From Candidatus Magasanikiibacteriota bacterium (GTDB lineage Bacteria; Patescibacteriota; Patescibacteriia; Magasanikbacterales; GWA2-37-8), in contig JBAYIZ010000001.1 in NCBI GenBank assembly GCA_041665405.1, forward strand, positions 90,618 through 154,617: a stretch of 64,000 nt of DNA, given 5' to 3'. The position numbers and the translations under genes are program-made. The notes beneath the pieces were generated by a model that was not told the DNA's origin, ran no database searches, and was given only the letters and a program-made list of their open reading frames with translations. Position 1 is the stretch's first letter, and the number at the start of each line of letters is the position of its first letter. This document shows positions 1-56,659 of this stretch, piece after piece.

Positions 1-300
1 AATATCAATTCAGTAAAATCGGATGCTAAAATTCAATTGATAAAATCTTCTTATGCCCAAATCGAGGATGTTTCACCCAATGAATTTACAGTAAAAAAAG
101 GTCAGCCGGTAAAATGGGTGATTGCCATGAACGAGCCGCCGACCGGTTGTATGCACAATATAGTAATTCGCGAAATTGGTGTTTCGCAACCAATGAATCA
201 ATCAGGTGATACTATTGTTGAATTCACTCCAACCGAAACAGGTGATTTGTGGGTAACTTGTAGTATGGGAATTCATCGCGCTACTATTCATGTTGTTTAA
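1..300 (+). CDS. Cupredoxin-like (blue-copper type) domain protein, 5'-truncated by the window edge. The reading frame is open from position 1, and the TTG at 37 in the ORF track is probably internal.
   Basis: Frame 1 is open from nt 1. The C-terminal region carries Cys/His/Met motifs (TGCMHNIV ... CSMGIH) typical of type-1 copper sites. It sits immediately upstream of copZ/copA. Confidence 0.5.
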   Translation, partial: NINSVKSDAKIQLIKSSYAQIEDVSPNEFTVKKGQPVKWVIAMNEPPTGCMHNIVIREIGVSQPMNQSGDTIVEFTPTETGDLWVTCSMGIHRATIHVV

Positions 301-305
301 ATAAT

Positions 306-512
306 ATGTATAAACTAAATTTTAAAATTACCAATTTAGATTGTGAGGCATGTATAAAATTGAGTACATCGGCATTGAAAACACTGTCTAGTGTGCAGAC
401 GGTCAAGATTGATCTTAAATCGGGATTGGCTGAAGTGGAATCAAATCAGGAGTTGAATTGGGAGGATGTCAAAAAAAGTTTGGCGGAAGTAAGTAAAAAT
501 GCGGAAAAGTAA
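306..512 (+). CDS. copZ: Heavy-metal-associated (HMA) domain copper chaperone, CopZ-like
   Basis: 68 aa with a CxxC metal-binding motif (DCEAC) in the HMA position, directly upstream of the copper ATPase gene. Confidence 0.7.
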   Translation: MYKLNFKITNLDCEACIKLSTSALKTLSSVQTVKIDLKSGLAEVESNQELNWEDVKKSLAEVSKNAEK

Positions 513-533
513 TTTCTGATATAATTTAAAAAT

Positions 534-3473: not shown

Positions 3474-3542
3474 AATAGGTATTTGAGCGTTTCCAAGCCA
3501 CATTAGGCTTGTAATTATTTATCTATTATGATAATATAAGCA

Positions 3543-3570
3543 GGCCTAAATCAGGCCTGTTTTTGTTTAA
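3543..3570 (+). terminator. Intrinsic terminator after copA
   Basis: Hairpin CAGGCCT-AAATC-AGGCCTG followed by TTTTTG. Confidence 0.55.
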
Positions 3571-3583
3571 ATATTGAGATATT

Positions 3584-6376: not shown

Positions 6377-6387
6377 ACAAAAAAGAG

Positions 6388-6412
6388 CCTTCAGTGGCTC
6401 TTTTTAAAAGCT
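6388..6412 (+). terminator. Intrinsic terminator after secA
   Basis: AAAAAGAGCC-TTCAGT-GGCTCTTTTT hairpin followed by a T-run. Confidence 0.6.
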
Positions 6413-6496
6413 TTTATCCACTTGCCAAAATATCGGAAAAGGGGTAGAATTTGGCTGTTTAATTCTGCTTATAAAATTATTAAATTTATCTAATTT

Positions 6497-8569: not shown

Positions 8570-8571
8570 TT

Positions 8572-9489
8572 ATGACTATACCATTTATAAAATATTCTAA
8601 ATATCTATTAGCTGTGAGTGCAATCGTGACAGTCATCAGTTTGGCTTCATTATTCACTTGGGGTTTAAAACCTGGTATTGATTTTACTGGTGGTTCATTG
8701 CTTGAAATTAGTTTCAGTCAAACTCGTCCAGATAATCAAGTTATGGAACAGGCATTTGCTGATCTTGATCATAAAAATATCGTAATTCAAAAAACTGGAG
8801 AAAAAGGGATGATTATTCGAACAGCCTTTTTGCCAGAAAATGAGCATCAAACTGTTTTAAAAGGTTTGCGTACACAATTTGAAAAAGACGGAAACACATT
8901 GCGTGAAGATCAGTTTCAAACAATTGGCGCCGCCGTTAGTAAACAATTACGTCAGCGTTCTATCTGGGCAGTATTTTTGGTCATTGTAAGTATTATTGCT
9001 TTTGTGGCGTATGCATTCCGTACTGTATCATTCCCAGTAGCTAGTTGGAAATATGGTGTGACTGCTATTATTGCCGCTTCACATGATGTGTTGTTGGTAA
9101 TTGGTGTTTTTGCTTTCTTGGGACATTATAATAATGTAGAAGTAGATATTGGTTTTGTGGTGGCTTTATTGACCGTATTGGGTTATTCAGTACAGGATAC
9201 TATTGTAGTGTATGATCGTATCCGTGAAAATTTATTACGTCGTCGTAATGTTAGTTTTAGAGAAATGGTAGATATTGGTTTGAATGAAACTTTGATGCGC
9301 TCAATTAATACTACATTAATTACCATGATTCCTCTTTCTGCCTTGTACTTCTTTGGTGGAGCAACAATCAAGAATTTTGCTTTGGCTCTATTGATTGGTA
9401 TCGCTAGTGGTGCTTATTCTTCCATTTTTGTGGCCAGCCCGTTGTTGGCTTATGTAGATAAATGGCAGAGAAATAAAGCTACAAAATAA
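8572..9489 (+). CDS. secF: Protein-export membrane protein SecF
   Basis: 305 aa starting 3 nt after the secD stop. N-terminal TM helix, periplasmic domain, C-terminal TM bundle typical of SecF. Confidence 0.85.
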   Translation: MTIPFIKYSKYLLAVSAIVTVISLASLFTWGLKPGIDFTGGSLLEISFSQTRPDNQVMEQAFADLDHKNIVIQKTGEKGMIIRTAFLPENEHQTVLKGLRTQFEKDGNTLREDQFQTIGAAVSKQLRQRSIWAVFLVIVSIIAFVAYAFRTVSFPVASWKYGVTAIIAASHDVLLVIGVFAFLGHYNNVEVDIGFVVALLTVLGYSVQDTIVVYDRIRENLLRRRNVSFREMVDIGLNETLMRSINTTLITMIPLSALYFFGGATIKNFALALLIGIASGAYSSIFVASPLLAYVDKWQRNKATK

Positions 9490-9507
9490 TACTAAAGATT
9501 CAAAAAC

Positions 9508-9540
9508 TCTCTCGCTTAAATCGGGGGAGTTTTTTCTTTT
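9508..9540 (+). terminator. Intrinsic terminator after secF
   Basis: ACTCTC-TCGCTTAAATCGG-GGGAGT hairpin followed by TTTTTTC. Confidence 0.5.
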
Positions 9541-9599
9541 TATCATTTTATGCTATACTATCTAGTAGTATAGTTAGAATTAATTTAGAATTTTTTAAT

Positions 9600-9776
9600 A
9601 TGTCTGGTCACGGTCATAGCGAAAGTGGTATCCGCCATATGATTGCCTTTCTAGGCACATTGGTGACAGTGTTTGCCTTTTGGGGAGGTTATGTTTCGGG
9701 CGCCCAGGGTTGGTGGTGGACAGCTTTTGGTTTGATAATTGTTTACGGTGGAATATATAAAATTATCGACAATTAA
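9600..9776 (+). CDS. Small (58 aa) two-TM membrane protein, below the ORF-track length cutoff
   Basis: ATG at 9600 and stop at 9774-9776. Product MSGHGHSESGIRHMIAFLGTLVTVFAFWGGYVSGAQGWWWTAFGLIIVYGGIYKIIDN. Ends 3 nt before the 9780 ORF, suggesting operon coupling. Confidence 0.4.
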   Translation: MSGHGHSESGIRHMIAFLGTLVTVFAFWGGYVSGAQGWWWTAFGLIIVYGGIYKIIDN

Positions 9777-9779
9777 TCT

Positions 9780-11216
9780 ATGGAGCCGATTACTTTTTCA
9801 TCCACTTTTGGCTTTTCGATCAATTGGGAGTTTTGGTCTTGGATGTTTTCTCAGCCACCTGCCGATTTGATTGCATATTTGTTCGCCATTATTGGTTGGG
9901 TAATTTTGGTTTTGATTTGTGTTAGTTTGGGGTCACAACTGTTGGCGCTTTATCGAGCAAAAAAAGCGGATGGTCAGTGGGAGTGGGTGTTGTTGGCCGT
10001 CGATGTACCGCCATTATTTATTCAATCACCAAAAGCCGTAGAGCAGATTTTTGCTCATCTTAGTGGGGCAAAAGTTAGTATTCGTTTGTCAGAAAAATAC
10101 TGGATTGGTAAACGACAGAAAAATTTTAGTTTTGAAATAATTTCTATTGAAGGTTATATACAGTTTTTAATTCGTACTGAAATAGCTTATCGCGATCTAG
10201 TAGAGGCGGCGGTTTACGCTCAGTATCCAGAGGCAGAAATTACCGAGGTGGAGGATTATGTGGATATGATTCCAGGATCTTACCCAAGTGCAACCCACCA
10301 TATGTTTGGAGTAGAATTCCAATTAGCTGATGTTGATGCTTATCCTATTCGTACTTATCCAAACTTTGAATATAAAATTAGTAAAGACGAAGTTTTTAGC
10401 GATCCAATGGCAGCGATTTTGGAAAATTTTTCACGTATTGGGCATGGCGAACATTTTTGGTTACAGATCATTATTGAACCAGTCGGTAATGATTGGAAAA
10501 CAAAAGGTATCCAGTTGGTAAAGGATATTATTGCCGGTCATATTGGTCATCATGGAAATTTCTGGGGTGATGTAGTAGCTATGATTGGGAATATTCCGCT
10601 GGCTATTATGAAGGAATTTTTTAAATATTTGAATGCCTCAGAACATGAAGAAGAGGAAGTTCACAAGGAAATGCCTGGCAAATTGACCGATGTATCTCCA
10701 GGTGGAAAAAGCACCATCGAGGCGATTGAGGACAAGATTGCCAAATTAGGTTTCAAAACCAAGATTCGCGCTTTGTATGTGGCGAGAAATGAAGTTTTTA
10801 ATCCTACCCGTTGTGTAGATGGTTTTATTGGTTCACTTAACCAATTTCATATTCAAAGTCGCAATGCAATTATCCCGCGTTTTATTACGCATACTCATTT
10901 TCTTTTTTACAACCACATGAGAGAGATCTGGGTACAAAATAAATTTTTTAAAGCTTTTGCCAAGAGAAAAATAAAAGTGGGTGGTACTCCTTATATTTTA
11001 AATATCGAAGAGCTGGCAACACTGTGGCATTTCCCATTACCGTTTGTGAAGACTCCGCTTGTACAAAAGGCTGGTGCCAAACGTGGCGAACCACCAATGA
11101 ACTTGCCGATAGAAGTGGAATCTGGACCGCTAAGACCAAAGGTGAGGCCGACTGGACAGGTTGGGGAGACTGTAGAGGTTCCGGAGCAGGAACCAGAGGA
11201 ATTGTTATATGGATAG
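9780..11216 (+). CDS. ATPase-less paralog of the N-terminal (membrane plus middle) domain of the T4SS coupling-protein-like gene at 21153-23714
   Basis: Alignable blocks with the 853-aa protein: AQYPEAEIT/AQYPHAEIT, DPMAAILENFSRI/DPLVAILNPLSKM, FWLQIIIEPVGNDWKTKGIQLVKDI/ALIQFIVRPATSHWRKQGVHMIRDI, ATLWHFP/AGLWHMP. It stops exactly where the Walker-A ATPase begins in the paralog. Confidence 0.75.
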   Translation: MEPITFSSTFGFSINWEFWSWMFSQPPADLIAYLFAIIGWVILVLICVSLGSQLLALYRAKKADGQWEWVLLAVDVPPLFIQSPKAVEQIFAHLSGAKVSIRLSEKYWIGKRQKNFSFEIISIEGYIQFLIRTEIAYRDLVEAAVYAQYPEAEITEVEDYVDMIPGSYPSATHHMFGVEFQLADVDAYPIRTYPNFEYKISKDEVFSDPMAAILENFSRIGHGEHFWLQIIIEPVGNDWKTKGIQLVKDIIAGHIGHHGNFWGDVVAMIGNIPLAIMKEFFKYLNASEHEEEEVHKEMPGKLTDVSPGGKSTIEAIEDKIAKLGFKTKIRALYVARNEVFNPTRCVDGFIGSLNQFHIQSRNAIIPRFITHTHFLFYNHMREIWVQNKFFKAFAKRKIKVGGTPYILNIEELATLWHFPLPFVKTPLVQKAGAKRGEPPMNLPIEVESGPLRPKVRPTGQVGETVEVPEQEPEELLYG

Positions 11217-11335: not shown

Positions 11336-11373
11336 TTTTTTGTTTGTGTTTAGCGAAAATAGTGGGTGTGACA

Positions 11374-11402: not shown

Positions 11403-11479
11403 GATTTGTTATTTGAAAATTTAATCAAATTTGACCGGTATCTAATTGTGTTGAGTAATCTCAATAGAATTTGGTACCG

Positions 11480-11960
11480 GTTTCGAGTGTCTTTCCCGCC
11501 GCATACTTTGCGGCCCATCCGGCGCTCATTGCGCCAGAGGTACGAGATGAGCCTGTTTTTCTTCTTCGCTCTGATGTCGATCGTCGCCAACGCTTTGACC
11601 TTCAAGGGGAAGAAATTCTCCTGGTGGGGGTTCGCGTTTGTCTTCGTGGGAGGGGCGCTCGCGGCTGTCGCGTTTTCGGAGAGCCGGGAACTGCCGATCC
11701 TCGACCACTCGTGGCAGGTCGCCGCCAGCTGGGCAGGCCTGTCCGGACTGATCGGACCGGTCGTTCAGGTGGCGTGGTTCTCCACGAACCCGCCCAAGTG
11801 CTCCGAGTGCGGGCGCAGCTGTTCCACCCACGAGAAGGTGGCGCGCATCTAGGTTTTTTGGACTTTTTCCTCCCCGAGTAAAATCGGGGGCAGTGTCGCA
11901 GACGGTCGAGCTAGTTTATTTAGCTCCCATCTGTGCCTGAAAAAAGTCCGCAATCCCTGA
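11480..11960. other. Compositionally anomalous high-GC cassette 1
   Basis: Abrupt shift from AT-rich host sequence to GC-rich sequence with GC-ending codons. Bounded by a host-like promoter at 11374 and the terminator at 11993. Confidence 0.6.
11547..11852 (+). CDS. Small (101 aa) membrane protein encoded by a GC-rich foreign-looking gene
   Basis: ATG at 11547 with an AGAGG Shine-Dalgarno 10 nt upstream. Product MSLFFFFALMSIVANALTFKGKKFSWWGFAFVFVGGALAAVAFSE... has 2-3 TM helices and a CSECGRSC tail. Codon usage is GC3-rich, unlike its neighbours. Confidence 0.6.
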   Translation: MSLFFFFALMSIVANALTFKGKKFSWWGFAFVFVGGALAAVAFSESRELPILDHSWQVAASWAGLSGLIGPVVQVAWFSTNPPKCSECGRSCSTHEKVARI

Positions 11961-11992: not shown

Positions 11993-12022
11993 AAAAATCA
12001 CCATTTAATTGGTGATTTTTTG
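11993..12022. terminator. Bidirectional intrinsic terminator
   Basis: AAAAAATCACCA-TTTAAT-TGGTGATTTTTT, lying between the + strand cassette and the - strand gene ending at 12034. Confidence 0.65.
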
Positions 12023-12033
12023 TTTGTGTTTTT

Positions 12034-25399: not shown

Positions 25400-26640
25400 T
25401 GCTTATTTGAGCCCAGAATAGCACACCGTTTCGTAAATCGGTGCGGCCGCCCTAAATCGCTTGGCCAGTTGGTTGAGTTGATAAAAGGGCAAACATGTCA
25501 GGAGTAAATCATGAGGAAGATTTTGTTCGTCCTGGTGGTCGCGGTTCTGGGTGCTTGCTCGCAGGAGCCCTGTACCAGCTCGGAAGAGTGGTGCACCGGT
25601 GTCGATACGTCGTCCGATTCGGACGTGTCGTCCGACGCGCAGACCGACTCGGGCATCAAGAAGCAGGAGTGCCTCGTGGCGACCGACTGCGATGACGGCA
25701 ACGCGTGCACTTTCGACTACTGCGACGGCGGCAACCCATGCACCTTCGAATATTGCAACCCCCGCGTCTGTCGGCACATTGCCATCGAGGGGGCGATTTG
25801 TGACGACGTCATCGCCGACGCCGACACCACCGCCGACGTCATCGCCGACACCGCCGCCGACACCGCCGACGTCGGCCCGGCACTCGAATGTGCCAAGGCC
25901 ATCGACTGCGACGACAAGAATCCGTGCACATTCAGTTTCTGCGACGCTGGCGTCTGCACACACATGGCCACCACGGACACGTGCGACGACGGCGATGTTT
26001 GCACGGTGAATGATGTTTGCTCGGCTGGGAAGTGCGTCTCTGGCGCTCCGGTCGTATGCGACGACAAGAATCCGTGCACCACCGACTCGTGCGACGCGGC
26101 CAAGGGTTGCGTGTACGCGGCTCCGGTCGTATGCGACGACGACAACGCTTGCACGACCGACGGTTGTGCGGCTGGCGCCTGCACCCACGTCGCCGTCGAC
26201 TGTAACGACGACAAGGTCTGCACCGCCGACTCGTGCGACCCGGCCAAGGGTTGTGCTCACAAGAACCTTGACAGTATCTGCAACGACGGTGACGCCTGCA
26301 CGATCGATAAGTGCGTCAACGACAAGTGCGTATGGTGGCCAAACCCTTGTGACGACGACAACGTCTGCACCGACGATTCGTGCGACGCGGTCAAGGGTTG
26401 CCAGAACAAGTCAACGATGGCGCCATGCGACGACGGAGACGTCTGCACGACGGGCGACACCTGCGGCAGTGACATGTATCAGCAGTGTGACGGAACTCCC
26501 ATCCTCTGCGATGGAGAACAGGCCAACGAGGAGAACTGCCACCCCGAGTTTGGCTGCTTCTAAGCCAACAACCTCCACACCAACCGAGGTAAGACAGTCG
26601 CAAGATCGTCCCAACTCGTTTTCATCATAAAAATTGTGGT
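25400..26640. other. Compositionally anomalous high-GC cassette 2
   Basis: GC-rich block with GC3-biased codons between an AT-rich region containing a promoter-like sequence/CorA terminator and the terminators at 26590-26697. Confidence 0.65.
25511..26563 (+). CDS. Cysteine-rich tandem-repeat lipoprotein (about ten ~26-aa repeats, C-D-D-x-N-x-C-T-x-D-x-C-x(3-5)-G-C), a paralog of the protein at 54712-56352
   Basis: AGGAG Shine-Dalgarno. Lipoprotein signal MRKILFVLVVAVLGAC (lipobox LGAC). Repeats CDDGNACTFDYCDGGNPCTFEYC, CDDKNPCTFSFCDAGVC, CDDGDVCTVNDVCSAGKC, and so on. Confidence 0.75.
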   Translation: MRKILFVLVVAVLGACSQEPCTSSEEWCTGVDTSSDSDVSSDAQTDSGIKKQECLVATDCDDGNACTFDYCDGGNPCTFEYCNPRVCRHIAIEGAICDDVIADADTTADVIADTAADTADVGPALECAKAIDCDDKNPCTFSFCDAGVCTHMATTDTCDDGDVCTVNDVCSAGKCVSGAPVVCDDKNPCTTDSCDAAKGCVYAAPVVCDDDNACTTDGCAAGACTHVAVDCNDDKVCTADSCDPAKGCAHKNLDSICNDGDACTIDKCVNDKCVWWPNPCDDDNVCTDDSCDAVKGCQNKSTMAPCDDGDVCTTGDTCGSDMYQQCDGTPILCDGEQANEENCHPEFGCF

Positions 26641-36805: not shown

Positions 36806-38620
36806 TTATATAATACATAATTTAACGTTTCCCATCACGTGTAATTCAGACATTGCGCGAGTGAGGGCTACGTATAGTAAATCATGTTGCACTTTTTTGA
36901 ATTCTTCTGTTACCCCAGATGGCAATCCGTCCACATCAAACGAGCGTTCATTTATCCCGACCAAACAAACTGTTTCAAACTCCACACCCTGTGCTTCCTG
37001 CATACTTAGACAGCGCACGTTTTTATTATCTTTAAATATTTTTTTGAATTCATCCAGATATTCTTTTTCTTTAGCCAGTATGCCGATGGTACCATTATCC
37101 ATGGTGTTTAGAATTTGTTTTATCTGTCCAATTTCTTGTTCCTTTGTTTCGAAAACATATTCCATCACTGGTTGGCCATCTTTTATTTCTACTGGGATAG
37201 AAACCGTGTATCCCAAACCGCGAATATAATTTAAAATTTGTTTGGTGTTGCGATAAACTTTTTGCAGAGATACCAAGCGTTCGTTTTCAATGTTTTCCCC
37301 GATGTCACTCCAAGCCGTTATCGTACCTAGTTGGGTTTGTTGGGCGAGGTCACCAACATATACCACAGATTCCAGGCGATGGTTTTGGCAATTTTTTAGT
37401 AATGCTAGTTGTTCTGGTAAATAATTTTGGAATTCATCTACAATCGTCAAATTATATTGCACTGGAAAAGCTTTGTTTTTCTTGCGGTAGGTGCCTTTGG
37501 CAGATTGTTCGTAATAATCACTTTTGATAGTAAATTGTCCAAAAGTTTTGAGGTAACATTTTAATAGAATAGTAAGATCAAAACGATCTAGTACTAGTTC
37601 GTTTTTTTGTTTAGCAAAAAGTTCAAATTGTGACTTATCAAAATTTGAATAAACTTTTTGAAGTAGTCCCCAAATATTTTTGTTATAATTTAATTCTGTT
37701 GGTAATTGTCTCAAGGTAGTGAGCTTTTTATATTCATACAAATTTCTTTCTTTCTCATTTGATCCATAACGAGTGGTCACTCTATAATTTTCTCCCAAAT
37801 TTAATATCGTAAACGCCCACTCTGCGAAGGTGATAATATTCACTCCACGTATTCCAAGCTCTGGTAATAGATGCGAGAAGTATTCTCTGGTACCGGCATC
37901 TTGAACCAACACCAAAATTGCATCAGTAGGGAATAGTTCGGTAGTTTCTGGGGATTGCATTAGATAGGCGACACGATGCAATGCCATCGTTGTTTTGCCT
38001 GAACCGGCTGGACCGGAAATTAAAAACGGACCGCGATAGGAGGTGCGCACTATTTGGTCTTGGGCTTTTTCCATTTGTTCGACTACTTCTGGCAATACAA
38101 AGCCAGCTTTTTGGCGGGTAAAATGTTCTTGATAAATTAATTCTCTTGGGTGTTCTGTGCTCTCGGTGGAAAGAAAAATTAATTTTCCATCCACAATCAT
38201 GTATTGGTCTTTGCTGAGCAATTTTCCAGATTGTGTTTTACCATCTGGTCGGGTGTAAGAGGCTGGTCCAGGATCTTCAAAACGTAACATCGCCGCTGGT
38301 GTAATCCATGAATATATTTTTTCATTGCTAAACGAAAATTTGGCGAAATACATTATCTTATTCTCGCCATTTATTTCAAATTCACAGCGGGTGAAATATG
38401 GTGAAGGATAAAGCTGTTTCAAATTTTCTACCTGTTCTTGATTGTGAGCAGCGAGTTTTTGTTGTGCTATAGCATCGCCAGGTAACATGTTGATGGCCGA
38501 CTTTTTCATCACCGATCCTTTTGCTTCGCGATGAATAATATCATCGGTAATTTTTTTGCGAATATCGCCAATGTGTTCTCGCGATTGTTCAAGTAGTATT
38601 TTCTTTTGTTCTTCATTCAT
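36806..38620 (-). CDS. UvrD-family DNA helicase, HelD (helicase IV)-like
   Basis: Walker A GPAGSGKTT, DEFQNY (DExx box), C-terminal LYVALTRA. N-terminal accessory domain as in HelD. Confidence 0.7.
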   Translation of the reverse strand: MNEEQKKILLEQSREHIGDIRKKITDDIIHREAKGSVMKKSAINMLPGDAIAQQKLAAHNQEQVENLKQLYPSPYFTRCEFEINGENKIMYFAKFSFSNEKIYSWITPAAMLRFEDPGPASYTRPDGKTQSGKLLSKDQYMIVDGKLIFLSTESTEHPRELIYQEHFTRQKAGFVLPEVVEQMEKAQDQIVRTSYRGPFLISGPAGSGKTTMALHRVAYLMQSPETTELFPTDAILVLVQDAGTREYFSHLLPELGIRGVNIITFAEWAFTILNLGENYRVTTRYGSNEKERNLYEYKKLTTLRQLPTELNYNKNIWGLLQKVYSNFDKSQFELFAKQKNELVLDRFDLTILLKCYLKTFGQFTIKSDYYEQSAKGTYRKKNKAFPVQYNLTIVDEFQNYLPEQLALLKNCQNHRLESVVYVGDLAQQTQLGTITAWSDIGENIENERLVSLQKVYRNTKQILNYIRGLGYTVSIPVEIKDGQPVMEYVFETKEQEIGQIKQILNTMDNGTIGILAKEKEYLDEFKKIFKDNKNVRCLSMQEAQGVEFETVCLVGINERSFDVDGLPSGVTEEFKKVQHDLLYVALTRAMSELHVMGNVKLCII

Positions 38621-38672: not shown

Positions 38673-39017
38673 TCTAATCTGGGCGATTGTAATAATTCAG
38701 TCTAGTATGTTGTGATATATAATCTTTCATACTTTATAAAATGATTATAAATCATGTTTTGGTATTTGTCAAGAAAAACAAAAACCGCCCTTGCCTAAAT
38801 TCGGAAAATTCATTCTGAACTTGGGCAAGTTGGGCGGTCGATGTGTCTGACCATTTCCTCCTTGTCGGCTCGGGTGAGCCATATGTACATCCTTGCGGAC
38901 GGAACGACGGTCAGCGTCGCTCTACCCCACCGTATTTCGGAGGATGGGGTGTTTGATATTAGCCTTTCGCTTCCACGGCGTCAGCAAGCTTTTGTTCAAG
39001 CGTGCGAAATCGGGCCT

Positions 39018-39554
39018 CTACTTCTTGCCGCGGAAGCGTTGGAGCACCTTCTTGTTGATGCTGTATTTCGAGGGCACGGTGCCCTCGAGGCAGGCTCTCG
39101 CGACCGCTTCGCTCGGGAAGAGCCGCACCCACGTACGGCGTTGCACCTGCAGCTTTTCGAGGATCACTCGTTTGCCGTTGGTGAAGCCGTCCATTCCGAA
39201 GAGGCTCTCATCCGTGAGAGTGATCTCGCGACGGACCTGCTCCGTGCCGATGTCCTCGTCGAAGTAGAGCTTGCCGAAGTCCATCAAGTCGCCGGCGTCG
39301 CGGAACTGATCGACCATGGTGGGCTCGAGCCCCGGAACGAGCGACATCATGAAGCTCTGCAACCGCTCGGCTTCGAAGATTCCCTCCTTGGGAGCGACGA
39401 CGAAGCTCATCGTCTGGCTCCAGTAGCCGTCCCTGTGGGGGATGTAGTTGATGTCGCAGCAGTTCACCACGACGATGGACGTGTTCCCCTCGAGAGCTTC
39501 GCGAACCTGCGAGAGTTTGTTCATCTTTTGATCTCCCTTCGAAGTCTTATCCAT
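39018..39554 (-). CDS. Hypothetical protein (178 aa), GC-rich foreign-looking gene
   Basis: The minus-strand product has a natural composition (MDKTSKGDQKMNKLSQVREALEG...). The overlapping plus-strand ORF is A/L/R/E-rich, typical of an antisense artefact. A promoter lies at 39678-39707. Confidence 0.6.
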   Translation of the reverse strand: MDKTSKGDQKMNKLSQVREALEGNTSIVVVNCCDINYIPHRDGYWSQTMSFVVAPKEGIFEAERLQSFMMSLVPGLEPTMVDQFRDAGDLMDFGKLYFDEDIGTEQVRREITLTDESLFGMDGFTNGKRVILEKLQVQRRTWVRLFPSEAVARACLEGTVPSKYSINKKVLQRFRGKK

Positions 39555-39677
39555 GCGTTCGGGTACGCTTGGATGTGGTGATTTGGTTCAAAGAACTCAA
39601 AACAGTATTTCGCCCGATCTGCTTCGACGACTTAGGGCGTTACAAAGATAACGAACTAAATCGTCAAAACAACTTGT

Positions 39678-39707
39678 AATGTTACCATAAAAATGAGCTT
39701 TCGTCAA
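39678..39707 (-). promoter_or_regulatory. Sigma70-type promoter (minus strand) for the 39018-39554 gene
   Basis: Minus strand TTGACGaaagctcatttttatggTAACAT. Same architecture as the promoters at 11374, 25324 and 52075. Confidence 0.45.
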
Positions 39708-39765
39708 CCCCCTTGCCCTAAAGTAAAAGCACACTATCGTAATAGTGTGCTCTATCTAAAAAATT

Positions 39766-39788
39766 TGGCGGGTCGGACGGGACTCGAA
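39766..39788 (-). repeat. Duplicate of the tRNA-Asp 3' end (23 nt, TGGCGGGTCGGACGGGACTCGAA), a candidate att/recombination scar
   Basis: Identical over 23 nt to 40925-40947. The adjacent downstream hairpin (AAAAGCACAC...GTGTGCTCT at 39722-39752) parallels the terminator next to the intact tRNA (AAAAGCAC...GTGCTCT at 40878-40908). Confidence 0.7.
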
Positions 39789-40086
39789 ACCTTCCTCCAC
39801 ACCTTATAGATTAGCAAAAAAATATGTATTTTGCTAAGACTACACATTATTCATTATCGTTGTTAGTCATTGTTAGTATCAATTAGTAAACTTTCGTCAC
39901 CTTTTTGGGCAACCGGTGGGCAACACTTCTGGAGGAGGTGACGAGGTTTATTAAAAACAGATATAAAAAAACCGCCAACCACTCTGTCCTATATACAATA
40001 TTATAATTATATACAAAACAGTTCGGTGGTCGGCGGTCTCTTTCAAGCCCGCCAACTCCTTACTGCGTCCTTTCGGGCTAGCTGGA

Positions 40087-40728
40087 CTAGCGGGGCCTGC
40101 GGGGGATCTCGACGCCGAGGAGGTGCTCGAGGAGGGTGATGTCGAGAATGGTCATCCCCAGCGGTCCGAATGGCATGTCGATGGACGGACGACGGTCATC
40201 GACGGGCGCGTCGTTGATGGGCAGACCGGCCGCCATCATCTGCTTGAGGAGCATGATGCCGTCGAGGACATGCATCACAACTTCTCGCGAGTTGATGAGA
40301 TTGGCCACCTTCTCCAGGCCTTCGGCCATGCTGTGGATCTCCTTGCTGAATGCGCCGTCTTCGCGGACGATCTGGCCACGAGGGGTGGGGTAGGAGCCAT
40401 CCTTGCATACCGCGAAGCGGAACGCCGGCATGAAGTCCGCGAAGAATTCGTACGCGGACACCTTCTCGAACACCTTCTCGATCGTCTGGCAAACGCCAGC
40501 TTCTTCGATCTGCGCGAGGATGTCCAGCATCTCCTGCTCTTCGATCTTGCCGTCGTTAGCCACTGCTTGCAGCGTGGCCTTGGCGTTCTCGATGAAGAGG
40601 AGTGTACCTTCCAAGGGGACGCCTTCCAGGTGGATCTCGCCATAGGCGATACCCAGCTCATTGAGCAACTTCTGCTTTTTCCCGACGATGAACATGGCTG
40701 TCTCCAGAGCAGAACATCCACGCATCAC
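40087..40728 (-). CDS. Hypothetical protein (213 aa), GC-rich foreign-looking gene
   Basis: The minus-strand product is plausible (MMRGCSALETAMFIVGKKQKLLNELGIAYGEIHLEG...). The plus-strand overlapping ORFs are Arg/His-rich artefacts. Confidence 0.6.
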   Translation of the reverse strand: MMRGCSALETAMFIVGKKQKLLNELGIAYGEIHLEGVPLEGTLLFIENAKATLQAVANDGKIEEQEMLDILAQIEEAGVCQTIEKVFEKVSAYEFFADFMPAFRFAVCKDGSYPTPRGQIVREDGAFSKEIHSMAEGLEKVANLINSREVVMHVLDGIMLLKQMMAAGLPINDAPVDDRRPSIDMPFGPLGMTILDITLLEHLLGVEIPRRPR

Positions 40729-40924
40729 GCGTGCCCTCTTCGATGTTACTCCGTTGAATGGAAGGTTGTGAGGGGGGAGAAAAATCCTTTTTTAGACTCT
40801 TTTCCCCGCTCATAACTCTGATTTAAAAGAACAATATAATACATTCTCACAAAAAGAGGTAAAAGTCAAGTATATAAACAAAAAAGCACTTTCTTTCGAA
40901 TGGTGCTCTTTATGCGAAACTCCC

Positions 40925-41001
40925 TGGCGGGTCGGACGGGACTCGAACCCGCAACTTCTGCCGTGACAGGGCAGTGCTCTAACCAGTTGAACTACCGACC
41001 C
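40925..41001 (-). tRNA. tRNA-Asp (anticodon GTC), CCA encoded
   Basis: Minus strand GGGTCGG-TA-GTTC-AACTGGTTA-GAGC-A-CTGCC-CTGTCAC-GGCAG-AAGTT-GCGGG-TTCGAGT-CCCGT-CCGACCC-G-CCA. A terminator hairpin lies at 40878-40908. Confidence 0.9.
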
Positions 41002-41004
41002 AAT

Positions 41005-41071
41005 AACCCAAGTCAGTAATCCTACCGTGACAGGCTCGCCTAGGCGAGTCTAGCCAGTTGAACTACCGACC
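41005..41071 (-). pseudogene. Degenerate partial copy of tRNA-Asp (5' acceptor, D-arm and anticodon loop retained; anticodon stem and 3' half lost)
   Basis: GGGTCGGTAGTTCAACTGGCTAGAC...CCTGTCACGG... matches the 5' half of the adjacent tRNA-Asp. It does not fold into a full cloverleaf. Confidence 0.6.
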
Positions 41072-41172
41072 CAAATTTTACTTGTTTCATTATAATAAAG
41101 AAAAGCGGTTTAGTCAATAGGTCTAAAAACAAAAAACCTGTCATGCTTGGACAGGTTTCCTGTTTAAACTGT

Positions 41173-42890: not shown

Positions 42891-43294
42891 GTGGAGGTGG
42901 CGAGAGTTGAACTCGCGTCCAGATAATTTTGAATATACCTTCTACATGCTTAGTCCACTTAGGATTTAACTATAGAGATAATAGGTGAACGAAACTCTCT
43001 ATGAGCGAGCCAGATTTACTTTCGGAATAAAGCATCTGACAATACCTTAAACCTACATCTCGTAAGTGACACCGTGTTGCGCTACGAAATCTCACGCAGG
43101 CGATGGGAAGCAACTATTAAGCTGCTACCGGAGCAAAATTGCAACAACCTTCGCCGATGAAGGCGTTGGTGAAAGCAATTTTAGCTTTTGAAAATAAGTT
43201 TGCACTTATAATTTGTTTTAGGGATTTATGAGGGCTAAAACATCCTCAGCATGCGAGTGTACGCAGAAACTTCTGTCAAAAGCACGGCACCCCC
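42891..43294 (-). ncRNA. ssrA: tmRNA (SsrA), ~400 nt
   Basis: 5' end GGGGGUGCCGUGC..., 3' tRNA-like end GGACGCGAGUUCAACUCUCGCCACCUCCA (T-arm plus acceptor). Internal tag reading frame ending ...NFAPVAA-stop. Lies 3 nt after the smpB stop. Confidence 0.8.
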
Positions 43295-52395: not shown

Positions 52396-52537
52396 GTGGA
52401 GGTGAGTGACTTCGGTTGCTCTTCTCCCTGGGTTAGGGAGAAACGTCGGAAGATCGTCGAAACGTTCGTCAACGTCCGAAAGTCTCAACAAGTCGGTAAC
52501 CAACCACGACTGTGAGAGACACCTCAAGGAGTCCCAG

Positions 52538-53320
52538 ATGAAGTGCCCGAACTGCTCCCATGAGATCGCTGTCAATCCCACCCCGAACAACTGCCCGGAG
52601 TGCGGGTACCTGCTGCTGACCGCTCCGATCGCGATGCGGCCGCCGCGTCTGGTCGGTTCCTTCGATTGCGTCCAGCAGGAAGAGGAGCCGCGCCAGCAGC
52701 CTCGTCCCGCCCAGCGCCAGCCGGAAGTCGCCGCGCCCAAGAAGTCGTTCCCGTGGCTGCTCACGCTCATCGCGATTTTCGCGGTGGTGGGAGCGGCCGC
52801 CTCGGTCGGCCACTGGATCCACTGGGGAGAGGTCGGAACGACCGTCGGCGACATGGCGAGCAGCGCCAAGACCCACGAGAACCAGACCGTCACCCGCGTC
52901 AACAGCGCGATCGTCGGTTCGGTTGGTTACGTGGTCGCCCAGGCGCGCGTCAACGCATCCGCCATTCGTGGCGATGTGGCTGGTGTTCTCGCGCAAGAGA
53001 ACGTCAACGCATCCGCCATTCGCGGCGACGTGGCTGGCGCTCGAAGTGACGTGGCCGCGGTGAAGGCTCAGATCATGGCCAATGACTCGGTGATCCGCCG
53101 GGACATCATCAACCAGGGTCAGAGCACTCGCCGGGCCATCTGGCGCATCCGCTCCGAGCAAGTCCGCCCCAACGCGGTCGACAACAACACGGCCACCAAG
53201 GCCGACGTCGACCAGGCCAAGCGCGATTTGCAGGACTGGATGACGGCCAACCGGATGAAGGTCGTCGTGGCCCCTTCGGCCGCCCCGACTCCGACTCCGA
53301 CGGCCGCTCCGGCCCGCTAG
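52538..53320 (+). CDS. Zinc-ribbon (CPNC...CPEC) single-pass membrane protein with an external Ala/Val-rich domain containing a tandem 11-aa repeat (NASAIRGDVAG, twice) and a PT-rich tail
   Basis: AAGGAG Shine-Dalgarno 7 nt upstream of the ATG at 52538. MKCPNCSHEIAVNPTPNNCPECGYLL, TM helix WLLTLIAIFAVVGAAASVGHW. Architecture is reminiscent of zinc-finger anti-sigma-factor-like proteins (inference). Confidence 0.6.
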   Translation: MKCPNCSHEIAVNPTPNNCPECGYLLLTAPIAMRPPRLVGSFDCVQQEEEPRQQPRPAQRQPEVAAPKKSFPWLLTLIAIFAVVGAAASVGHWIHWGEVGTTVGDMASSAKTHENQTVTRVNSAIVGSVGYVVAQARVNASAIRGDVAGVLAQENVNASAIRGDVAGARSDVAAVKAQIMANDSVIRRDIINQGQSTRRAIWRIRSEQVRPNAVDNNTATKADVDQAKRDLQDWMTANRMKVVVAPSAAPTPTPTAAPAR

Positions 53321-53701
53321 CCTCCCCGGCTAGCAGTAGTTGCGTAGGGGACCAGGTGCGACTTTCGCCCTGGTCCCCGCCAACTTCTCCTCTGTCTTTA
53401 GAGGAGACACTATTATCTGACGACGCTGATTATTGAGCGTCGAAAGGTTAGTGGCAAGACAAAAATCCCAAACAGGGTGCCCGAGCAATCGGGCCACTGG
53501 TTTAGATAATAAGAGATTGTTATCTGAAACGGTGGTATAAAAACCATCTCGTTCCTTTCAATATTATCCCAGCAAAATTTCCCATCGCGAAGAAAGAGTA
53601 TTGTAATAATATTTTTTCTTAGCGATGGGAGAATGTCCTCCCCACGTGAGCCGGAACCGCTCCGGTAAATATGGTTGGGGACCACCCACAAGGAGAGGCA
53701 G

Positions 53702-54298
53702 ATGCTTCGCAGTTTCCTCGTGGCGACCATCGTCGCCATCACCGCGTTCGCGGTCGGGGCCAAGCCGTGCTTGGCGCAAGAGCAGGATACCGTCGTCACC
53801 CCCCAGCCGAACCAGACCGTCGAGGTCACGGTTTTGCCTGGTGGTGATGTGACGGTGGTCACCCCTCCCACCATCACGAAGCCGTCGTTGATTCACGCAG
53901 AACTCGGCCTCAAGGCCGGCTACATCGCGGGCAACGCGCCCTCGATGGTGGTCATGCCGAACGTCGGCTTGACCCTGCGTCTCTCGAACGACTGGTTCCT
54001 TCGCGCCTCGGCCGCTGGTGGCCTCGCTCGGCATGGTTCCGTGACCGACTTCAACGTCGGCCTCGGGGTGTGGGTTTCCGATTACTTCCGCCTGACGCTT
54101 TCGGGTGGGCAGATTGTCCAACGGACACCTGCCTTCGCCTGGAACCAGGGCGCGCTGGTCGGATCTCTTTCCGCCGATTACTTCCTCGGCCCCCACGCGT
54201 TCGTCGGGGTGGAAGGTTTCGGTGGTCCGAGCTGGGACCAACTCGATCAGCTCAGTAGCTCCCTCGGGGGCAAGCTGAACATCGGCTGGCGTTTCTGA
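53702..54298 (+). CDS. Outer-membrane beta-barrel-like protein (OmpA-like / OmpW-size, ~8 strands) with signal peptide and a C-terminal aromatic signature
   Basis: Signal MLRSFLVATIVAITAFAVGAKPCLA. Alternating hydrophobic beta-strand pattern. C-terminus ...GGKLNIGWRF ends in Phe, the classic OMP sorting signal. Confidence 0.55.
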   Translation: MLRSFLVATIVAITAFAVGAKPCLAQEQDTVVTPQPNQTVEVTVLPGGDVTVVTPPTITKPSLIHAELGLKAGYIAGNAPSMVVMPNVGLTLRLSNDWFLRASAAGGLARHGSVTDFNVGLGVWVSDYFRLTLSGGQIVQRTPAFAWNQGALVGSLSADYFLGPHAFVGVEGFGGPSWDQLDQLSSSLGGKLNIGWRF

Positions 54299-54505
54299 TC
54301 TACGGATCAGGCACCATGCTCCTTCTCGCGTCATGTTTATGATGATGCGAAGAGTGAGCGGTGAGCCAGCATTCCTGACACCGGGGGGAGCTATGATAGC
54401 ACCTTGTGTCAGGCTCCCTTCTTAGTGAATATATTATGTGTTCATTGAGAAGGGAAGTTACTGATAGCTATTTGACAATTTAAAGACTAGTTAAAAAATA
54501 ATAAA

Positions 54506-54559
54506 CCTGCGCGGGGAATTTAGCATATATCCAAATATATTCTGAATTCCCCGCGCAGG
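54506..54559. promoter_or_regulatory. 15-bp perfect inverted repeat CCTGCGCGGGGAATT / AATTCCCCGCGCAGG with a 24-nt AT-rich spacer, ~150 nt upstream of the Cys-rich gene
   Basis: Seen directly. Could be a terminator for the OMP-like gene or an operator. Confidence 0.5.
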
Positions 54560-54711
54560 CAGCCTTCGCGCTGTGTGGGAGTTTCGGTCCTAGACCGAAG
54601 CGACTCCCGCACTACGCGGGGGAGTGTGCTGTGAGAGGTACGAGACAGTCTCCGACGGTTGGCAACTTCGCTGACCTGAGGAAAAGGGTTTCTTTTGGAG
54701 GATACGTCCAG

Positions 54712-56352
54712 ATGGCTACCAAGCTCATCAAGCTGGCCGCGAGCTGCGCGGCGGTGTTCTGTTTCTTCACCCTTTCGGTCGGTTGCGAAAGCGCTCCGAC
54801 CATCCCGGCCGACATCGATGGCGGTTCGGTCGACACCGGCACCATCGACAACGACGCCGATGCGGGCACGACTGACGCCAACCCGTGCGACGACGGCAAC
54901 GCCTGCACGACCGACAAGTACGTCGCCGACACGTGCATCTACATCGCCATCGTCGCGCCCTGCGACGACGGCAACGCCTGCACGACTGGCGAGATGTGCA
55001 ACTTCGTCGGCATCTGCGGCGGCGCCACGCCCACGCAGTGCGACGACAACAGCGCCTGCACCACTGATACCTGCGACTCGACCAAGGGTTGTGTCTTCGC
55101 GGCCAACGCGGCCTGCGACGACGGTGACCTTTGCACCACCGACACCTGCGACCCGACCAAGGGCTGCGTCTTCGCGGCGAATACCTGCGACGACGGCAAC
55201 GCCTGCACCACCGACCTCTGCACCACCGGGGGCAACTGCTCCCACCTGCCGACGTCGGCTGCTTGCGACGACGGCAACGTGTGCACCTCGGGCGACACCT
55301 GCGTGACCGGCACCTGCGCCGGAACCGCCGTCACCTGCGACGACGGCAACGTGTGCACCGACGACGCCTGCGTTCCAAACGTGGGCTGCATGCATGGCAT
55401 CAACGTGATGCCCTGCGACGACGGCAGCGCGTGCACCTCGGGCGACACCTGTTTCGGTGGCGCTTGCGCCGGAACGGCGGTCTCGTGCGACGACAACAAC
55501 CCGTGCACGAACGACCTGTGCGACGGGGCCGTGGGGTGCGACTTCGCCCCCGCGACCTGCGACGACGGCGATCCGTGCACCATCGACACCTGCGACGCGG
55601 CAACCGGCTGCGCCTTCGCCGACAAGGTCTGCGACGACGGAAAAGTCTGGACCTGGGACAACTGTGACGCCTCTGGGTGGTACACCGGAACGGCCGGCGC
55701 GTGCTATTTCGACAACAAGTCGGGCGCCTGCCAGAAGGACTCGGACTGCACGGACAGCAATCCGTGTACGTTCGACGTGTGCAACCCGTTCACCGGGACC
55801 TGCAACGCGCCGTTGCAGGTCAGCTGCAACGACGGCAATCCCTGCACCTTGGATTATTGCCTCCCCGCACCCGGCTGCGTCAACGACGCGAAGGTGTGCA
55901 ACGACGGCAACGCCAAGACAGCGGACTCCTGCAGCGCAGCCACGGGAGTCTGTGTCTTCACGCCCATTTCGCAACCGCCCGTCAACCCGCCCGACACCGT
56001 CAAGATCGAAGTCCAGTGCGGAGCGTTTTCCGGGGAAGTTCATCCCATGTACGGGCTGACGGCTGATGGCAAGGGGTTCGATCCCTTCGGCCTGACGACC
56101 GGCACCGCGCCGTATGTGAACAACCTGCTCAAGGCGCAACTGTGCGTCTGGGGTTCGGAGATCGCGGTGCGTGACCTGTCCACGCCGTACCAGCTGTGGT
56201 TCGGTTGCGACAGCCCCACGAAGCTGGACGTCTGCGTCGTCAAGGTGAACGGTTTGCTCGTGCCCAACAAGTACGTGCATCACCTCAACGCCTGCATGGG
56301 CGGCGGCCAGGGCAACATCCAGCTTACCCCGGAGGACTTCGGCTGCAAGTAG
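54712..56352 (+). CDS. Cysteine-rich tandem-repeat secreted (lipo)protein (~14 CDDGNxCTxDxC...GC repeats) with a distinct ~130-aa C-terminal domain. A larger paralog of the protein at 25511-26563.
   Basis: GGAGG Shine-Dalgarno. Signal MATKLIKLAASCAAVFCFFTLSVGC. Repeats CDDGNACTTDKYVADTC, CDDGNACTTGEMC, CDDNSACTTDTCDSTKGC, CDDGDLCTTDTCDPTKGC, and so on. C-terminal domain carries conserved Cys pairs. Confidence 0.75.
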   Translation: MATKLIKLAASCAAVFCFFTLSVGCESAPTIPADIDGGSVDTGTIDNDADAGTTDANPCDDGNACTTDKYVADTCIYIAIVAPCDDGNACTTGEMCNFVGICGGATPTQCDDNSACTTDTCDSTKGCVFAANAACDDGDLCTTDTCDPTKGCVFAANTCDDGNACTTDLCTTGGNCSHLPTSAACDDGNVCTSGDTCVTGTCAGTAVTCDDGNVCTDDACVPNVGCMHGINVMPCDDGSACTSGDTCFGGACAGTAVSCDDNNPCTNDLCDGAVGCDFAPATCDDGDPCTIDTCDAATGCAFADKVCDDGKVWTWDNCDASGWYTGTAGACYFDNKSGACQKDSDCTDSNPCTFDVCNPFTGTCNAPLQVSCNDGNPCTLDYCLPAPGCVNDAKVCNDGNAKTADSCSAATGVCVFTPISQPPVNPPDTVKIEVQCGAFSGEVHPMYGLTADGKGFDPFGLTTGTAPYVNNLLKAQLCVWGSEIAVRDLSTPYQLWFGCDSPTKLDVCVVKVNGLLVPNKYVHHLNACMGGGQGNIQLTPEDFGCK

Positions 56353-56659
56353 CCGTCTAGTCGCTCGGGAATTTATCCGATTTATATTAATCGGCGGGGA
56401 TACCAGCTTGACAACTGGGATTCCTCGAGAGGCCATTGTGGCCAAACCTGACCCATTTCGGGTCGCCGTATTTCGCGACGAGAGATCGTAGCGGAGTCGG
56501 TCAGCCGGGGCACTCAAAGGAGTGCCCCACCGTCTTGAATTCATAATCTCGGTTGTGAGTTGAAGATGGAAATACTATTATCTCCATTACAAAAACACCG
56601 CCCTTCTCTCGGGTGGTTTTTTGTTTGTCTTTTTAGTGAATTTTTGATACAATATTTAT

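Follow-up and report, generated by a model that had tools for sequence, protein, structure and literature searches.

An intact tRNA-Asp gene between displaced pieces of a tRNA-Asp copy at a strain-variable insertion site in Candidatus Magasanikbacteria

How does foreign DNA settle at a tRNA gene in a Candidate Phyla Radiation genome, a reduced genome of a kind whose routes of gene gain are poorly known? The question is raised by a 64,000-nt stretch of an AT-rich Candidatus Magasanikbacteria genome (assembly GCA_041665405.1, contig JBAYIZ010000001.1, forward-strand positions 90,618 to 154,617; hereafter the window), in which an intact tRNA-Asp gene lies between fragments of a tRNA-Asp copy and beside two GC-rich genes. 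Insertion hotspots at tRNA genes are textbook knowledge. In the classic integrase event, the 5' part of the resident tRNA gene remains joined to its promoter, and displacement affects a 3' fragment only. An earlier note, made from the sequence alone, had seen this classic footprint here. The hotspot and the 3' repeat are indeed present, but the native promoter adjoins a 5' pseudo-copy (psi-5') and the live tRNA gene lies within the insertion. The locus holds ~2.1 kb of inserted DNA, a promoter contiguous with psi-5', a tRNA-terminator block resembling that of a related locus (L005) and a discrete gene cassette (cassette 1), and its content varies among relatives. In the direction of transcription, its features are as follows.

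41089-41117, minus strand: native tRNA-Asp promoter, TTGACT-17-TATAAT (promoter scan 11/12)
41002-41074, minus strand: psi-5', 5' part of an older tRNA-Asp copy (repeat and alignment)
41049-41072, minus strand: psi-5' segment matching tRNA nt 1-24 (23/24)
41035-41048, minus strand: inserted 14-nt palindrome of psi-5', CTCGCCTAGGCGAG
41020-41034, minus strand: psi-5' segment CCTGTCACGGTAGGA, matching tRNA nt 30-44 (13/15)
41002-41019, minus strand: psi-5' tail, 18 nt
40925-41001, minus strand: intact, functional-looking tRNA-Asp(GTC) with encoded CCA (ARAGORN; Rfam tRNA, 66.8 bits)
40876-40924, minus strand: terminator A of L005/L002 type, with spacer GGGAGTTTCGCATAAAG, hairpin and tail TTTTTTGTTT
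39792-39956, minus strand: AT-rich 165-bp spacer from cassette 1 to psi-3', with promoter-like site, tandem ACTAACAA repeat and small hairpin
39766-39791, minus strand: displaced tRNA-Asp 3' end (psi-3'), matching tRNA nt 52-77 (25/26)
39720-39765, minus strand: terminator B, a perfect 12-bp hairpin (GAGCACACTAT/ATAGTGTGCTT) with short T-run (fold and alignment)
38744-38772, minus strand: native helicase promoter, TTGACA-17-TATAAT (promoter scan 12/12)
36806-38620, minus strand: UvrD-like helicase gene, distal neighbor of the insertion

To compare this site with its relatives, 30 related loci (L001-L006 and others) were gathered with the UvrD-like helicase as anchor. Helicase identity to the window was 73-79%, with L001 as the closest relative found (79%). 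In L002, L005 and L006, tRNA-Asp ends ~200 bp before the helicase start, and the order is tRNA, one terminator, helicase promoter and short leader, which provides the uninterrupted locus that the earlier note had wanted to see in related genomes. The helicase promoter and leader (38772 downward) are homologous across L001-L006. Because the window shares them with L002, L005 and L006, ~2.1 kb must have been inserted in the window, and the helicase promoter marks the distal edge of the inserted DNA. L001 carries 9.8 kb of mobile DNA in the same interval (84-9900), comprising two tandem small elements, each with a large serine recombinase and a REP_ORF2-G2P protein (rolling-circle-type Rep). Between the two elements lie a DUF4238 gene and genes for a C5 methylase and an HNH protein. 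For the first L001 recombinase, the final 18 codons are encoded antisense by the tRNA-Asp gene; upstream of this tRNA the sequence is unlike the native promoter, and its terminator is of neither A nor B type. The arrangement in L003 differs again, and in L004 the contig stops 230 bp upstream of the helicase gene. As content varies across relatives, the tRNA-Asp/helicase junction is a real strain-variable hotspot, in agreement with the earlier note; none of the relatives shows the window's arrangement with low-GC genes in place of the GC-rich ones.

The tRNA-Asp(GTC) gene at 40925-41001 was confirmed as intact by both ARAGORN and Rfam. The tRNA-Asp of L001 has an identical sequence (100%), as does that of L006 over the 75 nt shared. 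Between 36 and 44 kb, neither a second tRNA nor a group I intron was detected (Rfam at E<=1; ARAGORN finds one tRNA). This eliminated a second foldable tRNA, which would have undone the earlier note's reading of the 23-nt repeat, as well as an intron-split tRNA-Asp; group I introns at position 35/36 of tRNA-Asp have been reported in Patescibacteria (PMC13011429).

Both pseudo-copies were validated. The exact repeat at 39766-39788 equals tRNA nt 55-77 (23/23), starts at the first T-loop base, extends through the encoded CCA and has the same orientation as the live tRNA; with a further three positions, it reaches 25/26. Since, by our own arithmetic, 64 kb should contain only ~3e-5 exact repeats of 23 nt, it is not a chance match. 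Alignment detected no tRNA similarity in the 55 nt upstream of psi-3'. The decayed 5' copy upstream of the tRNA likewise stood up, at 23/24 for nt 1-24 and 13/15 for nt 30-44, while its tRNA similarity past nt 44 was not demonstrable by alignment. Together, psi-5' (nt 1-44) and psi-3' (nt 52-77) nearly complete one tRNA with a single break region, and they look like two halves of one older gene split between variable loop and T-stem. The two terminators were less alike than the earlier note had supposed. Both hairpins fold, A (40870-40924) at -12.3 kcal/mol (z -2.2 versus shuffles) and B (39712-39765) at -16.4 kcal/mol (z -6.4), but they are of different types and have only an AGAGCAC...GTGCT clamp in common. 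The spacers after CCA are also unrelated (GGGAGTTTCGC for the live tRNA, AATTTTTTAGAT for psi-3').

The position of psi-5' is the most telling feature of the locus. The promoter region is contiguous with, and 83% identical to, the tRNA upstream region of L005 (9599-9750). It runs directly into psi-5' (41049-41074), and the live tRNA begins 71 nt further downstream. As the native promoter is now upstream of psi-5', the live tRNA must be transcribed with a ~80-nt leader, and because promoter and psi-5' are contiguous, the live tRNA itself lies inside the insertion. psi-5' is not called as a tRNA by ARAGORN or Rfam. As RNA, including the 18-nt tail, it forms one long hairpin just 5' of the mature tRNA, within 41002-41085 on the minus strand (-34.5 kcal/mol, z -4.9). 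G-U accounts for 8 of the 18 outer pairs, so this hairpin exists only on the transcribed strand, and selection for a pre-tRNA leader, instead of pure decay, may have shaped it. The distal side of the live gene fits import as well, because the block made up of the tRNA and terminator A resembles L005 to an anomalous degree: it is 96% identical over 128 nt, while its flanks are at 83% and 71%. For the non-tRNA part alone (46/49 identical), binomial P values were 0.024 against the 83% background and 8e-5 against the 71% background.

A comparable layout was detected in L006, where the order is promoter, psi-5' (nt 1-27 and 45-56), an open reading frame (ORF) for a GIY-YIG nuclease (9380-9640; Pfam E 2.4e-15), full tRNA-Asp, terminator, psi-3' (~nt 38-77) and helicase promoter. 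As read from its sequence, L006 is an independent instance of the window topology, with pseudo-halves around an inserted gene and a full tRNA. L006 also contains a small repeated hairpin, CCGACTNAGTCGG (9340-9356, 9770-9782, 9815-9827 and 9945-9960), which stands in place of the anticodon arm in psi-5' and of the T arm in psi-3' and recurs nearby. In L036, GIY-YIG genes (3669-3911 and 4158-4403) were observed between tRNA genes.

Recombination genes at tRNAs in the relatives are serine recombinases and the GIY-YIG nuclease, not tyrosine integrases. At the window locus, the absence of a surviving integrase claimed in the earlier note was borne out: the serine recombinases and Rep proteins of L001, used as tblastn queries, gave no match in 38.8-40.9 kb, and Pfam searches of ten ORFs covering the main alternative frames of this region gave none either. 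The same tblastn and Pfam searches returned no pseudogene relic of an integrase, which the earlier note had suggested looking for, and with the L001 queries serine-recombinase homologs were found nowhere in the window.

On these grounds we favor, tentatively and with somewhat less than even confidence, a model in which incoming DNA carrying a complete replacement tRNA-Asp gene split the resident one. The resident gene would have been broken at ~nt 44-52, in the region from variable loop to T-stem, by DNA that brought a complete tRNA-Asp with its own L005-type terminator (A). psi-5' would have been left beside the old promoter, now driving the new tRNA through a structured ~80-nt leader, and psi-3' beside the old terminator B. 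Cassette 1 would sit inside the insert, just after terminator A, and cassette 2 would follow the old terminator B and precede the helicase promoter. Both would be self-contained mobile units, each composed of an AT-rich sigma-70-type promoter, a structured untranslated region (UTR), a GC-rich ORF and a long terminator hairpin. Such promoter-to-terminator cassettes would have accumulated later or alongside; the order of their insertion is inferred. For the enzyme, analogy with L006 would favor gene conversion triggered by a GIY-YIG nuclease, with the conserved tRNA halves as homology arms; a large serine recombinase acting in trans, of the kind encoded at the L001 tRNA, could be the alternative. 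The split-gene model draws support from psi-halves that nearly complete one tRNA, from the repeated topology in L006, from the recombinase-bearing elements of L001 that abut the same tRNA and from the boundaries of cassette 1, which are conserved in L090 and L091.

The two cassettes and their parts are listed below.

39957-40875, minus strand: cassette 1, promoter-to-terminator unit (homolog alignment)
40864-40869, minus strand: -35 hexamer of cassette 1, TTGACT
40087-40695, minus strand: coding sequence of cassette 1, 202 amino acids (aa), GC 0.59, GC at third codon positions (GC3) 0.82, with a Shine-Dalgarno-like sequence read from the DNA
~39965-40042, minus strand: 80-nt terminator hairpin of cassette 1 (-44.3 kcal/mol, z -9.1)
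38775-39707, minus strand: cassette 2, with promoter, long 5' UTR, coding sequence and terminator
39679-39707, minus strand: cassette 2 promoter, TTGACG-17-TAACAT
39018-39524, minus strand: coding sequence of cassette 2, 168 aa, GC 0.60, GC3 0.87, with a Shine-Dalgarno-like sequence read from the DNA
38784-38839, minus strand: terminator hairpin of cassette 2, tail TTTTTGTTTT

The coding frames of both GC-rich genes were identified from their GC3 values, as ORFs on the opposite strand reach 0.57-0.60 and host genes 0.32-0.47. The exact proteins of both are recorded only in one NCBI Candidatus Magasanikbacteria assembly, and neither matched any entry in Pfam, NCBIfam, PHROGs or PADLOC. For the 202-aa protein, the source genome's own entry is the sole close match, accompanied by a remote family of ~200-aa proteins that are <=38% identical. 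The cassette 1 unit occurs in three unrelated contexts (window 39957-40875, L090 1853-2800 and L091 3826-4760). Its noncoding ends are 74-83% identical in aligned columns to L090 and L091-93, with one compensatory stem change, and similarity ceases immediately before the -35 hexamer at one end and immediately past the T-run at the other. The 5' UTR holds a GGGGAAAA..TTTTCCCC hairpin. The homologous proteins are 36-45% identical and their genes have GC3 of 0.82-0.94 (0.88-0.94 in L090/L091) in hosts of 41% GC; the high GC of cassette 1 looks maintained rather than recent. Its ends do not coincide with the tRNA repeats, and its homologs in L090 and L091-93 carry no tRNA fragments at theirs. The integration footprint that the earlier note saw around the gene between the repeats is not supported in that form, as the cassette boundaries (40875-39957) differ from the repeats, nor was its idea of an apparently repeated integration sustained, as gene 2 is not bounded by any repeat.

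The 165-bp spacer falls outside cassette 1 as delimited by the homologs. Its promoter-like site (39882-39853) reads TTGATA-18-GATAAT and scored 10/12 in the scan. In the segment 39712-39882 (minus strand), this site, together with two ACTAACAA repeats, faces psi-3' and terminator B. A predicted transcript of ~120 nt from this site would end with the last 26 nt of the tRNA, including CCA, and the 14 nt before psi-3' pair partly with it in a minihelix-like stem.

Cassette 2 encodes a member of a well-conserved family (family 2). The structure model of the 168-aa protein (predicted local distance difference test score, pLDDT, 94) has a weakly nucleotidyltransferase-like fold; Pfam, and Foldseek against the PDB, returned no match. 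A phage or plasmid origin of the family was discarded because IMG/VR, the INPHARED phages and the PLSDB plasmids contain no members. In many independent contexts, family 2 genes lie 150-700 bp downstream of a tRNA on the same strand: tRNA-Ser-GGA in L031 and L039, Ser-TGA in L035, Trp in L036, Lys in L074, Asn in L077/78 and, in L063/64, an apparently intron-interrupted tRNA that was read by eye and missed by ARAGORN. The association applies to ~10 of the ~25-30 loci with enough upstream sequence, all found through the family itself, versus ~2% by chance as estimated from tRNA density without a formal test. In L085 (365-1140), an intact tRNA-Pro(CGG) is followed by a cassette for a 78-aa membrane protein, by 26 nt that repeat the tRNA 3' end exactly and by a family 2 gene; the locus represents a clean, recombinase-less mini-island of ~580 bp with a layout as in the window. 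Except in L085, a search for distal tRNA repeats at family 2 genes after full tRNAs found none. Serine recombinase genes or remnants adjoin the tRNAs in L031/34 and L040.

Further observations concern family 2 loci outside the window. The cassette is conserved over ~735 bp, from a 24-nt motif, TAAGGGCAAAAGAAATTTTTTCAT, to the terminator (L031 4397-6130; L033, L034, L036, L039 and L062). In L031, three copies of TAAGGGCAAAAGAAATTTTTTCAT separate the tRNA-Ser, a 39-codon N-terminal serine recombinase remnant and the cassette. The locus further contains direct repeats 81-100 nt long, and the arrangement looks array-like. The motif is absent from the window at <=3 mismatches. The apparent tRNA of L063 (528-812; also in L064) lies ~330 bp upstream of the family 2 gene, and its anticodon loop is interrupted by a ~200-nt intron-like insert that fits the reported group I introns (PMC13011429).

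That the locus contains two foreign GC-rich genes, as the earlier note had stated, was upheld by GC3, but such genes are not special to it. Outside islets, window GC is ~38-40%, and seven single-gene islets of 57-63% GC (GC3 0.79-0.88) were detected.

11461-11960: islet off the tRNA locus
25441-26620: islet off the tRNA locus
38821-39580: islet at the tRNA locus
39981-40760: islet at the tRNA locus
52401-53500: islet off the tRNA locus
53581-54420: islet off the tRNA locus
54521-56540: islet off the tRNA locus

Five of the seven are far from any tRNA, with no convincing tRNA-like fragment nearby. Those read in detail have an upstream sigma-70-type promoter-like sequence, followed by a structured UTR and a host-type terminator, and similar islets occur elsewhere in relatives (L002 13061-14020, L005 11921-12340 and L006 11881-12300). 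Assembly chimerism as their source was dismissed, given seven promoter- and terminator-bounded islets and the same cassettes in independent assemblies. Terminator tails share TTTTTGTTT, present in 14 copies in the window versus 1.7 expected (including sites 11337, 12017, 26693, 38774, 40874, 41125 and 56618) and also found in L002 and L005. Its occurrence at both edges of the insert is uninformative as a target-site duplication, since it is a generic terminator tail of this genome. One islet is flanked by an exact 16-nt sequence, TTTTTTGTTTGTGTTT (11336-11351 and 12016-12031).

Two islet proteins on the plus strand (25511-26563 and 54712-56352) are cysteine-rich and, with signal peptides judged by eye, apparently secreted, and they contain Dictyostelium-type CTDC repeats, 6 in the first (Pfam E 1e-33) and 9 in the second (5e-50). 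Housekeeping genes around the tRNA locus include the transfer-messenger RNA (tmRNA) gene, smpB, infC-rpmI-rplT and ppsA. The tmRNA (42891-43294, minus strand) encodes an unusually long tag peptide with cysteines (ANLFSKAKIAFTNAFIGEGCCNFAPVAA), and similar tags occur in L005 and L006.

Several points weigh against the split-gene model. Neither a nuclease or recombinase gene nor a relic of one was found in 38.6-41.2 kb, and the break point is only bracketed, as the psi-5' tail past nt 44 is not confidently alignable. A homing nuclease would also find a target in any replacement tRNA of the same sequence. It is uncertain which terminator type is ancestral in this lineage, with relatives at 73-79% in the helicase and L001 having neither type. 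L085, from the gene 2 family, is a clean classic case with a tRNA-Pro, a 26-nt 3' repeat and no psi-5'. The last point leads to a conventional tRNA island, which we consider less likely but a serious rival, given L085 and the extent of the 23-nt block. Here, a trans-acting integrase, since lost or located elsewhere, would have recombined attP with the T loop of tRNA-Asp; an element spanning 40924-39789 (terminator A, cassette 1 and spacer) would have restored the tRNA 3' end and displaced psi-3', which stayed with the resident terminator B and an older cassette 2, while psi-5' would stem from an unrelated event. A 23/23 block from exactly the first T-loop base to CCA is the usual signature of such islands (Islander, PMC4383910), L085 repeats the layout at tRNA-Pro, where a 26-nt repeat occurs without a psi-5', members of the gene 2 family are often found directly after a full tRNA, and tycheposons stack with partial tRNAs between them, newer elements pushing older ones inward (bioRxiv 10.1101/2020.12.28.424599). 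This scenario leaves the presence of psi-5' between native promoter and live tRNA unexplained, however, and the element would need a terminator nearly identical to the native one of L005/L002. Moreover, the ends of cassette 1 differ from the repeats, its homologs lack terminal tRNA fragments and a search for an integrase or relic at the locus found none.

The remaining explanations dispense with site-specific recombination or with the tRNA itself. Tandem duplication to two or three tRNA-Asp copies through slippage or unequal recombination, with decay of the outer ones by deletion and independent insertion of cassettes, appears improbable to us. Tandem tRNA genes are common in bacteria, terminators A and B share the AGAGCAC...GTGCT clamp and the spacing of the promoter-like site (39882-39853) is what a former full copy ending at psi-3' would call for. 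Yet none of the four relatives with tRNA-Asp near the helicase gene has tandem copies, the post-CCA spacers are unrelated despite identical tRNA parts, no tRNA similarity appears in the 55 nt upstream of psi-3' and both truncations fall in one tRNA region, as they do in L006. We give equally little credence to cassettes that insert after terminator T-tails at any place in the genome, irrespective of tRNAs, in which case psi-3' and terminator B would be the left end of cassette 2, imported from a former site beside a tRNA. At least five other window islets lie away from tRNAs with no convincing tRNA-like fragment near, TTTTTGTTT stands at both edges of the 2.1-kb insert, the exact 16-nt TTTTTTGTTTGTGTTT flanks the islet at 11.35-12.03 kb and family 2 cassettes elsewhere, such as in L062, have tRNA 3'-like ends. 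A tRNA-Asp fragment 1.1 kb from a tRNA-Asp gene would then be coincidence, however, and TTTTTGTTT, as a generic tail (14 versus 1.7 expected), carries little information.

The live tRNA seems to have come in with the insert while both old halves stayed in place, and the topology recurs with a GIY-YIG gene in a relative. This suggests how mobile DNA could draw its homology arms from a universally conserved gene and still leave that gene alive. The cargo consists of GC-rich promoter-to-terminator cassettes that recur across Patescibacteria genomes of sharply lower GC. A literature search found no description of GC-rich cassettes in Patescibacteria. One broader, unlikely reading is that the tRNA locus is a landing pad of a wider, undescribed Patescibacteria cassette system with actively maintained GC. 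Each unit would be a self-contained expression cassette for one gene, combining a host-type promoter, a structured UTR, an ORF kept at a GC3 of 0.8-0.9 and, as terminator, a long conserved hairpin. Such units would pass from one AT-rich genome to another, landing at terminator/promoter junctions and tRNA 3' ends, and be mobilized in trans by large serine recombinases or homing nucleases. Should mobility and maintained GC hold true, the cassettes would be a tractable model for the flexible gene pool of ultra-small bacteria.

Among known systems, Islander-type islands, in which the attB of a tyrosine integrase lies in the T loop or anticodon loop of the tRNA gene, are the natural reference. The window shares with them an intact tRNA, foreign DNA, a displaced 3' fragment from T loop to CCA and strain-variable content. 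The tRNA (40925-41001) lies at one end and the 23/23 direct repeat at the other, and the island is absent at the same tRNA in L002, L005 and L006. Unlike such islands, the window has no integrase gene within the island by tblastn and Pfam, psi-5' separates the promoter from the live tRNA, whose 5' part is not contiguous with native upstream DNA, and the DNA between the repeats measures only 1.13 kb, with a single cassette as cargo whose ends are not the repeats. Tycheposon islands of Prochlorococcus contain stacked elements at one tRNA with partial copies between them and degraded remnants, and a minority carry large serine recombinases with a replication module (bioRxiv 10.1101/2020.12.28.424599). 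A streamlined genome and repeated tRNA integration with partial copies are common to both systems, with fragmented integrases and scattered partial tRNAs as further points of likeness, and the minority type resembles L001, in which the recombinase plus REP_ORF2-G2P module is found twice. In contrast, the window lacks the hallmark integration and replication genes, including an inward-facing integrase, its units are single genes of ~0.9 kb rather than 10-20 kb, its host belongs to the Patescibacteria and its cargo deviates strongly in GC.

Three further systems share individual traits with the locus. CIMEs of streptococci are cis-mobilizable, att-flanked remnants without recombination genes. 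The att-like repeat pair recalls them, as it encloses DNA that has no recombinase and could presumably move only in trans or by accretion, but no conjugative element context exists in the window, and mobility is here presumed from sequence. Free-standing GIY-YIG homing endonuclease genes adjoin tRNA genes, as do the Seg genes in the tRNA region of phage T4. L006, with GIY-YIG gene and full tRNA-Asp between pseudo-halves, and L036, with GIY-YIG genes between tRNA genes, parallel this arrangement. In contrast, the Pfam search identified no nuclease ORF, GIY-YIG or other, at the window locus, the setting is cellular rather than phage and the cleavage role in L006 is putative. Integron cassettes are likewise small single-gene mobile units with a long imperfect terminal hairpin, and L031 is array-like, with a repeated 24-nt motif by a recombinase-gene remnant. 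The window cassettes differ in having their own promoters and intrinsic terminators and in being scattered over the genome; neither an IntI-type tyrosine recombinase nor attI was seen, nor, on inspection only, an obvious R'/R'' core in the hairpins that were read. An integron reading was therefore rejected on the basis of the sigma-70-type promoters, the intrinsic terminators and the lack of IntI in the ORF Pfam search. Even with its departures from known tRNA islands, namely no hallmark gene, a displaced 5' half, very small units and GC-deviant cargo, the window is a recognizable, slightly unusual form of genomic island at a tRNA gene.

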